NCBI GenBank assembly: GCA_044892525.1
Contig: CM097886.1
Span: 156,984,001 to 157,048,000, forward strand
DNA: 64,000 bases
Direction of reading: 5' to 3'
Source of the DNA: Schmidtea polychroa
Lineage: Eukaryota
Below are positions 62,022 to 63,068 of this stretch, in pieces; position 1 is the first letter of the stretch; each line of letters opens with the position of its first letter. A program made the translations under genes and the position numbers. The notes below the pieces were generated by a model. That model saw only the letters and a list, made by a program, of their open reading frames with translations, was not told where the DNA came from and ran no database searches.

Positions 62022-62232
62022 GGTGGGTCGCTGGTAATCTACATTTTACCCGTTAGTGTCGTTTACCCGATGCAACCCAAGATACAAAGTCTTGTTTGAC
62101 CAACCGATACCCGTTGAGGGATCAACGTTGGTAATGTGTCGTATGGATGAATACTCGCGAGAAGTGAGCATATCTCTGTACACTATAATCGACGAGTATT
62201 CGGATGGATTCGAGGGCTGCCGATAGAAGGCT
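62022..62232 (+). ncRNA. Candidate structured RNA, copy 1
   Basis: Stems covary against copy 2 (CGTTGA-GGGA-TCAACG; GAATACTCG/CGAGTATTC); family unknown. Confidence 0.45.
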
Positions 62233-62262
62233 TGTGCCAGACTCAGTAAATTAATTATTCAA

Positions 62263-62458
62263 GTCCATATCATCATTTAGCAAATGGAAAGATTGAGAGA
62301 CAATTCCGTACAATTAGAGATGCAATACAGATAACAATCAAAGATAAAAGACATAAATCATGGGTAGATGTTCTTCCCGAAGTTCAGTTCATGCTGAATT
62401 CAACTTTTCAAAACACTATTAGGAAGACTTTAGCTGAAACGGTGTTTGGGAAATGAAT
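62263..62458 (+). pseudogene. Ty3/gypsy integrase core fragment
   Basis: SPYHHLANGKIERQFRTIRDAIQITIKDKRHKSWVDVLPEVQFMLNSTFQNTIRKTLAETVFGK*. Confidence 0.8.
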
Positions 62459-62863
62459 GAATGTTTCTCCGAGATTGTGGAAGAAGAAAAAATCAATCAG
62501 ACTGGGATTCAGTTAATTGTGAATTTTCTTGATTTTTACCAAATTCTTTTTGGATTAGTGAATTTTGAGCTCTTAATTTACACTTAATGCACTTTATAAC
62601 AGTACTGCGACCAATAGTGTTATTTTTCTATCGTAAAATCTAAGGTGATTATTTCTTACTAAATGATATTATAGCTTTTTTACACGGTTTAATAATGTAT
62701 TGGTGACTGCGATTAACTAACTTTTATTAGATTAATTTTAATTGTTTGTTAATAGACTAACAATAGACTATTTTCGAATGATTTTAGTTTTTCTTAATTG
62801 AATCGATAATATAAAGTTAGCAGTGTATGTAGATTACTTACTAGTCCCGTCTTGAAACACGTG

Positions 62864-63068
62864 GTGGGTTACAGGTAAGCAACATTTTACCTCGTCGAGC
62901 TGTTTCCAGTGTAACCCAGAATGCAATAATAACTCTACTTATTGATACCCGATGAGTGATCATCGTTGGTAATGTATCAAGAGGGTGAGTGCTCGCAAAA
63001 AGTGAGCGCACTGTTTGTACTATAATTGTCGGGCACTCTTTGGGTTCACGGACTTTCGATAGAAGATG
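62864..63068 (+). ncRNA. Candidate structured RNA, copy 2
   Basis: CGATGA-GTGA-TCATCG; GAGTGCTCG/CGGGCACTC; TGGGTTACA/TGTAACCCA. Confidence 0.45.

Follow-up and report, generated by a model that had tools for sequence, protein, structure and literature searches.

A predicted four-domain RNA at the 3′ end of Burro-type LTRs in Schmidtea polychroa, next to a proline tRNA primer-binding site

Burro/GYPSM1 elements are described in the main text of a review as giant gypsy-like LTR retrotransposons of planarians, longer than 30 kb, with env placed between gag and pol, a cargo of MATH, BIR, RING and ankyrin domains and thousands of copies; the terms "tRNA", "primer binding" and "secondary structure" do not occur in that main text, and RNA at the LTR end is not described there (PMC6431247). 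Burro elements are abundant and expressed and are reported to matter for planarian stem cells (PMC8532177, PMC13465017). Contacts of the primer tRNA outside the primer-binding site are established in Ty1, Ty3, HIV-1, FIV and RSV and include the A-rich loop and the primer activation signal of HIV-1, the U5–T arm contact of RSV and the D-arm contact of Ty3 (PMC3185550, PMC5371799). The LTR end studied here is likewise a structured RNA adjoining a primer site, and in part of its families another arm of the primer tRNA finds a complementary second box. It differs from the retroviral and Ty1/Ty3 structures in that a 160-nt core of three domains lies wholly inside the LTR and is kept across sub-families only 40–60% alike, in its 7–8-nt spacer before the primer site, and in that no Rfam retroviral family matches it.

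The window, i.e., the whole stretch of 64,000 nt of DNA that was analysed, had been predicted to carry two diverged copies of a multi-stem, RNA-like motif of ~210 nt. The hairpins and stems quoted in this original prediction are present with correct letters and positions, and the motif does occur twice; the blocks measure 227–235 nt and start at 62021 and 62862 (Table 1). Search of 781 Mb of the genome, in four large pieces, gave 1,464 first-look candidates for copy 1 and 4,033 for copy 2, 40 being scored in each case. Hence, the motif is not a local pair, and the genome search proposed along with it found many diverged copies in which the pairing is kept. In 59 of 60 fetched loci, similarity sets in at one and the same base; the flanks outside this start are unrelated except in duplicated loci. 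The region common to the sub-families of copies 1 and 2 is only ~235 nt long and corresponds to the motif, which is also the best-kept part of the LTR in comparison with other LTRs.

An open reading frame (ORF) lies just inside the shared start on the opposite strand, and a genome query with it returned 5,020 candidates. Among the 150 of them that were scored, many were near-identical matches arranged in same-direction pairs 23–46 kb apart. Seven same-direction pairs are 97.7–99.9% alike; the repeats start with TGTTGGG and end with the reverse complement of the motif's first bases, and they are the direct terminal repeats of the TG...CA type that define an LTR element. Target duplications of 4 bp were found in five of the six elements tested, with LTRs ranging from 1,644 to 5,801 nt. 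Between the LTRs of one element of the copy 2 clade, the Pfam matches are ordered as zinc knuckle, MATH, viral fusion glycoprotein, protease, reverse transcriptase (RT), RNase H, integrase and ankyrin, and TRAF/MATH and BIR-RING ORFs come after the ankyrin. The size, the env position, the cargo and the copy number given above for Burro/GYPSM1 are shared by the elements studied here, the gene order with cargo having been established on this copy 2 clade element. Both copies in the window are the 3′ terminus of a Burro-type giant gypsy LTR on the window minus strand, and both are dead remnants with no primer-binding site after either. The gag-env-pol genes run in the direction of the window minus strand, downstream of the minus strand of the motif, whereas the plus strand had been proposed from the G-U wobbles of the two copies.

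Table 1. Burro-type LTR remnants in the window, their predicted RNA domains and adjoining features
Feature	Position	Strand	Basis or remark
Copy 1, isolated 227-nt 3′ end piece of a Burro-type LTR (old sub-family)	62021..62247	-	LTR 3′ end 62021; no primer-binding site next
Copy 1, predicted domain D: terminal stem and two hairpins, stops 4 nt before LTR end	62021..62079	-	sequence; pair counts, 56 copies
Copy 1, predicted domain C: stem with apical hairpin and an 8x1 internal loop (62128-62135, CCAA at its end)	62105..62141	-	
Copy 1, predicted domain B: long stem, C-loop-type bulge, top hairpin	62149..62201	-	
Copy 1, predicted domain A: hairpin, UUCUA loop	62214..62238	-	
Integrase-core fragment of another gypsy-like element, abutting copy 1, outside the RNA	62250..62456	+	Pfam rve_3 E=0.003, below cut-off
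Copy 2, 5′-truncated Burro-type LTR remnant, ~770 nt	62862..63630	-	LTR 3′ end 62862; no primer-binding site next
Copy 2, predicted domain D: terminal stem, GAAA-loop hairpin, second hairpin; terminal CA = LTR end	62862..62918	-	
Copy 2, predicted domain C: 8x1 loop ending CCAA (62966-62973)	62942..62980	-	
Copy 2, predicted domain B: C-loop-type CAC at 63002-63004	62987..63038	-	
Copy 2, predicted domain A: loop 63058-63064	63049..63076	-	
Two AATAAA hexamers, candidate poly(A) signal	63182..63204	-	326 and 343 nt before LTR end
Broken remnant of LTR-internal ORF, two frames	63211..63631	-	coiled-coil-like, basic Arg/Lys-rich stretch

The sequence that copy 1 shares with other loci ends at 62229–62247, and the model match extends over 62087–62252 (139.7 bits). 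The integrase-core fragment next to it is oriented opposite to copy 1 and is 90% identical to a stretch of locus L245. Copy 2 is delimited by 67 matches that start at its LTR end and 36 that end at 63620–63639; a 253-nt alignment with the LTR end of an element that has both LTRs gives 79% identity, and its model match covers 62925–63088 (143.1 bits). The LTR-internal ORF gave no Pfam family above the cut-off.

In intact parent elements, the position of the motif, which the original prediction had left to be mapped, is the 3′ end of the LTR. The 5′ LTR is followed by an 18-nt primer-binding site complementary to the genomic tRNA-Pro(UGG), and the spacer between them has 7–8 nt in both clades of the motif, the window clade and a second clade (L091:7705-7712, L236:8907-8913). 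The tRNA-Trp family mentioned below has a spacer of the same length; in most retroelements this distance is 0–3 nt. Searches of the genome for a primer-site junction of the copy 1 sub-family found none. A search with the primer site only yielded 52 distinct upstream stretches, forming seven clusters and belonging to the two clades. The C-loop word was at the expected place in 52 of 52 stretches, the domain C loop word in 51 and the hairpin A word in 49. The spacing between core and LTR end is variable, over a range of ~70 nt. In the second clade, gag lies downstream in four of four clusters, and env, within 10 kb, in three of four. Second-clade elements differ from Burro/GYPSM1 in being shorter, one having ~15 kb between matching LTR positions, and in that MATH was not seen in the second-clade stretches scanned. 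All primer sites seen beside the motif are those of tRNA-Pro, most of them by construction of the search. A search for the motif with another primer by way of env families returned one family, which is env-bearing, belongs to the same genome and uses a tRNA-Trp primer; the motif was not found in it (best E 0.44 in 30 kb). Both tRNAs occur in tandem arrays: tRNA-Pro(UGG) at G000:C1:130.90-130.95 Mb (475-bp unit, 1,555 matches) and tRNA-Trp at C4:55.02-55.05 Mb (284-bp unit, 821 matches). The two arrayed tRNAs are the two primer tRNAs seen here.

The LTR-end block is predicted to fold as an RNA of four domains, A to D, which are described here in the sense orientation. Domain A is a hairpin whose loop consists of UUCUA and one or two further bases. 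In domain B, a long stem is interrupted by a C-A-C bulge that faces a single U and is flanked by a pair on either side; the hairpin at its top begins with A-U, G-C and U-G. Domain C comprises a stem of ~11 pairs, an eight-by-one loop ending in CCAA and a variable apical hairpin, and domain D is a terminal stem with variable content. Three of the loops hold invariant unpaired bases. The GNRA tetraloops that had been put forward as a conserved feature are confined to the window clade; in the second clade, the corresponding loop has many sequences and lengths.

Domains A–C keep their pairing across sub-families that are only 40–60% alike (80–88% of cells, against 32–47% in slid controls), and the identity of the core between the clades is 39–51%. 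Dozens of further sub-families were added through matches to a 14-base two-word pattern taken from the second clade, which had 3,890 genomic matches compared with 221 for the reversed control. When 43 copies are aligned with MAFFT, pairing is kept in 84% of cells (37–44% with slid partners), and double changes occur in 32 of 43 pairs. The same number of pairs has them in 61 model-aligned rows, where the pairing of 88.5% is that of rows fitted to the model. In a set of 45 rows, mostly from sub-families outside the model building, 79.6% of cells pair, 36 of 43 pairs have double changes, and all five covariation measures lie above 500 shuffles; all the controls used here, on every set, ignore the relatedness of the copies. 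On the first alignments, two of the five measures were not above column shuffles, namely double-change pairs (17/500 and 84/500) and further pair types (492/500 and 371/500); both gave 0/500 on the later, more diverse set. The compensatory changes, originally reported for two copies, thus reflect a covariation that is real far beyond these two and extends across the sub-families.

When 37 second-clade copies were aligned with MAFFT only, pairing reached 97% in the upper helices of domain B and 64–65% in domain C, the low value arising because MAFFT leaves 17 of the 37 rows one column out of register. Single-sequence folding of eight primer-anchored copies recovered domain C in all eight and domain B with its bulge in seven. 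With domains A and B as the sole anchors, 41 of 61 representatives show the geometry of domain C, compared with a mean of 1.7 and a maximum of 5 after shuffling, and the 20 misses are mostly decayed window-clade copies. Among the 41 loops, 33 end in CCAA and 38 have the opposing G; loop positions 2–4 vary. For domain D, 90.6% of cells pair in 56 copies of the window clade, with double changes in 4 of 17 pairs. Each window copy alone, taken as the plus strand, folds modestly better than shuffles (z of −1.9 and −2.3), and plus-strand RNAalifold gave only nine pairs on 57 decayed copies, since decay hides the fold. All-against-all mutual information revealed no new pairs, its signal being dominated by the split into two clades, and the unpaired columns yielded no extra helix or pseudoknot. 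The objection that the motif might consist of ordinary LTR hairpins is right in that the block is an LTR end; its multi-domain fold and invariant loop nucleotides are not those of chance hairpins.

The lack of a match to known families, claimed from the sequence alone, was borne out by Rfam 15, which gave no match near threshold in window positions 56000-64000, 8 long loci and 13 short loci, and none for either copy at E up to 10. The bulge of domain B resembles the C-loop motif as defined in 10.1101/2021.12.02.470923, sharing two closing Watson–Crick pairs, C-A-C on the long strand, one free base opposite and the location in a hairpin. The C, A and C are invariant (43/43), one closing pair is A-U in 60 of 61 rows, and the other is A-U in 36, G-C in 22 and unpaired in 3. 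The bulge fits the C-loop definition in its sequence and closing pairs, and the non-canonical pairs that would make the two base triples of this motif are predicted from the sequence. The loop of domain A has the U at position 1 and the A at position 5 of a T-loop; its position 4 is U and not a purine, which does not agree with UUCRA or YGNRA, the forms given in the definition (10.1101/2022.12.26.521914). Some likeness to T-box Stem I and to the tRNA T-loop is given by a five-base U...A loop with one or two extra bases and by a proline codon plus A in an internal loop. T-box leaders feature a specifier loop with loop E, an apex of two T-loops and an antiterminator. Here, in contrast, AGUA before CCAA is not conserved, a single opposing G stands in place of a loop E strand, and there is no antiterminator. 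A T-box riboswitch was rejected, with no Rfam match and variable bases before CCAA.

The best explanation, to which we assign about an even chance, is that the 230-base LTR end forms a four-domain RNA in the 5′ leader of the genomic RNA, where it would place the proline tRNA primer in position and make the RNA accessible for packaging and reverse transcription. A packaging or priming signal had been among the options named at the outset, and the selected, RNA-type structure tied to retroelement remnants that was then proposed is supported. This explanation builds on the identity of the LTR, its orientation, its adjacency to the tRNA-Pro primer-binding site and the covariation of domains A–C. 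The two AATAAA hexamers of copy 2 lie 326–343 nt before the LTR end, which would place the block in U5, so that the genomic RNA would have it at its 5′ end only, folded in cells and serving in the leader; it could also be R instead of U5. Of 22 long primer-anchored loci, 7 have AATAAA at −328 to −336 relative to the primer site and one more has ATTAAA, and a search with one pattern found no poly(A)-tailed copy. The read depth of contigs peaks at the motif in a DNA-like run too, and contig depth gives no ranking of expression.

In such a leader, domains A–C would form a rigid module whose invariant loop bases may be contacts for the primer tRNA or for Gag/nucleocapsid, and domain D would contain the first bases copied by RT. 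In part of the second clade, a second box of domain D would pair with the D arm of the tRNA. A box complementary to the D arm of tRNA-Pro, about 45–55 nt before the LTR end, was detected in 15 of the 26 representatives of the second clade, for the most part at −43 to −55, compared with a mean of 1.7 and a maximum of 5 after shuffling, and in 1 of 14 of the window clade. The duplex with the D arm in the box region, which was chosen after the box had been noticed and in copies that are related, averages −15.6 kcal/mol, compared with −10.6 ± 1.0 for shuffled tRNA (0/200). It is also stronger with tRNA-Pro (−15.7) than with tRNA-Trp (−9.7 kcal/mol), Pro being lower in 38 of 45 cases; in the window clade, Pro is lower in only 6 of 20. 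Position-free D-arm tests gave little or no excess (mean 20.8 vs. 20.7, with 2/40 at p ≤ 0.05), and the position-free duplex test gave −17.4 vs. −16.2. These results, the near-absence of the box from the window clade, the variable spacing of the core and the lack of the motif in the tRNA-Trp family speak against the explanation.

The main rival is control of RNA processing or export of the Rex/Rev-response type, or of poly(A) addition or splicing, which we regard as rather unlikely. The fold would bind a protein, e.g., the basic product of the LTR ORF, or U1 snRNP, and decide on cleavage at AATAAA, splicing and the export of unspliced RNA. The position of the hexamers in copy 2 and the Arg/Lys-rich stretch in the ORF just upstream are consistent with this, although most second-clade loci have no AATAAA at this offset, and the ORF upstream of the motif in one second-clade LTR has no similarity to the window-clade ORF. 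The ends of the block are not joined by a closing stem, unlike those of the HTLV-1 Rex element, which such a stem brings together. The splice-donor-like GTAAG occurs inside domain A in 25 of 29 second-clade representatives but in only 1 of 32 of the window clade. In favour of this rival, C-loops are known to bind proteins, and one acts in the nuclear import of a viroid RNA (PMC2952876, 10.1101/2021.12.02.470923). In L108, L109, L110, L118 and their relatives, the GTAAG is mostly followed by T and includes the unpaired G, and it may bind U1. An intron running from GTAAG through CUCAC to CAG was rejected, the AG not being kept in several sub-families and the donor word being absent from the window clade.

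A bolder form of the priming hypothesis, which we consider doubtful, takes the core as a module that reads tRNA: CCAA would read the anticodon loop of tRNA-Pro in a codon-like manner, the UUCUA hairpin would dock on the D loop or elbow, the terminal domain would pair with the D arm, and the RNA would thus select and load its own primer. CCAA is complementary to tRNA-Pro only at the anticodon loop, where a shuffled tRNA gives some match in 50% of trials, and CUUCUA, with wobbles, only at the D loop (27% of trials). The CC of CCAA can also pair in cis with the opposite G run. If true, such a module would be a eukaryotic counterpart of the T-box leader in an animal retrovirus-like element, and loops that read the primer tRNA would represent a new mode of primer selection.

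An IRES-like or otherwise translation-controlling leader, one of the original proposals, is very unlikely. The several domains of the fold, its invariant loops and its place in a 5′ leader would suit such a role; however, the first ORF starts ~670 nt past the primer site in one element and gag ~3–9 kb past it, no start codon follows the fold, and no Rfam IRES family matches.

Of slightly lower probability still is the possibility that the structure acts in minus-strand strong-stop DNA or in antisense RNA, i.e., as the window plus strand. Watson–Crick covariation is neutral with respect to the strand, and most window-clade copies have a plus-strand GNRA sequence in the loop of domain C. The wobbles point the other way. 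Of 61 rows, 52 have U-G and 9 have U-A at one pair, and a second one, in the terminal stem, is U-G fixed in 22 of 56; both wobble only on the minus strand, contrary to the original reading of the G-U pairs. At the sub-family level, G-U states outnumber A-C states by 28 to 11 (16 to 6 for distinct states, p=0.052), several of the A-C states sitting in helices misaligned for the second clade, while states of private decay are balanced at 22 and 22. In addition, the sense strand folds better than the antisense strand in 9 of 10 sequences. The near-fixed U-G pair, the state counts and the folding, together with the gene orientation, therefore favour sense RNA.

Instead of a ribozyme, the block is probably a signal, so far undescribed, by which reverse transcription or packaging is initiated. 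A new self-cleaving ribozyme, also suggested at first, is the least probable reading: invariant unpaired bases in three loops and the lack of a fitting known family would allow it, but the core words of hammerhead, twister, pistol, hairpin and HDV ribozymes are absent from the sense strand of 10 copies (two single matches on the antisense strand), and neither a further helix nor a pseudoknot is offered by the unpaired columns. Moreover, the sharp boundary marks where integrase joins the LTR and not a cleavage site, and a ribozyme cutting upstream of the primer site would sever the template of strong-stop DNA. The LTR context spoke against a tRNA-like 3′-CCA end and against a SINE, the CCA being the LTR end followed by the spacer and the primer site; ARAGORN detected no tRNA in eight loci, and other sub-families end in ACA or GCA. 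A link to Penelope through an RT-like fragment in L078 had no Pfam support.

A homologue outside this genome was not found in the collections scanned, and the gag query found nothing in viral contigs. All 28 pattern matches, 26 from metagenomes and 2 viral, fail the model (best E 0.41). Literature on Burro, planarian LTR RNA structure and primer contacts contained no description of the block; this excludes supplements and two papers that may describe LTR ends, the first report of the Burro genome and a 2026 Developmental Cell article on Burro1. Within this scope, the structured RNA is real and has not been described before, although its kind is one to be expected, and the element that it terminates is known. 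Because a single genome holds dozens of diverged sub-families, covariation can be followed to a depth that is rare for a retroelement leader, with a short list of invariant bases to probe. The motif would add a family of Rfam grade, and the priming and packaging of a 30-kb RNA would become testable on a fragment of 230 nt.

Several further observations concern the LTRs. The bases just before 3′ LTRs (L101:425-464, L107, L068:956-995, L065:477-516) are not a purine tract; they form a G3-C5-type run that could pair with the primer-site region, and plus-strand priming may be unusual in these elements. A second G+C-rich island with hairpins is located at L091:3090-3330, far upstream in the same LTR. 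In L260:1747, L066 and L080, window-clade LTRs are found inside second-clade LTR ends, directly after ACGAG/CCGAG, which hints at nested insertion near the site.

Elsewhere in the window, the plus strand at 59160-60677 has an intronless frame of 505 codons with an N-terminal RING finger and a weak C-terminal propeller-like match, resembling a TRIM-like host gene. A 16-base word at 62846-62861 adjoins the LTR end of copy 2; Rfam gives no rRNA match there, and we take it to resemble a conserved stretch of 28S rRNA. Two 234-bp tandem arrays at 29517-30430 and 43003-43916, with AT-rich flanking repeats, are inverted-looking counterparts ~13 kb apart and possibly represent the ends of a large DNA transposon.
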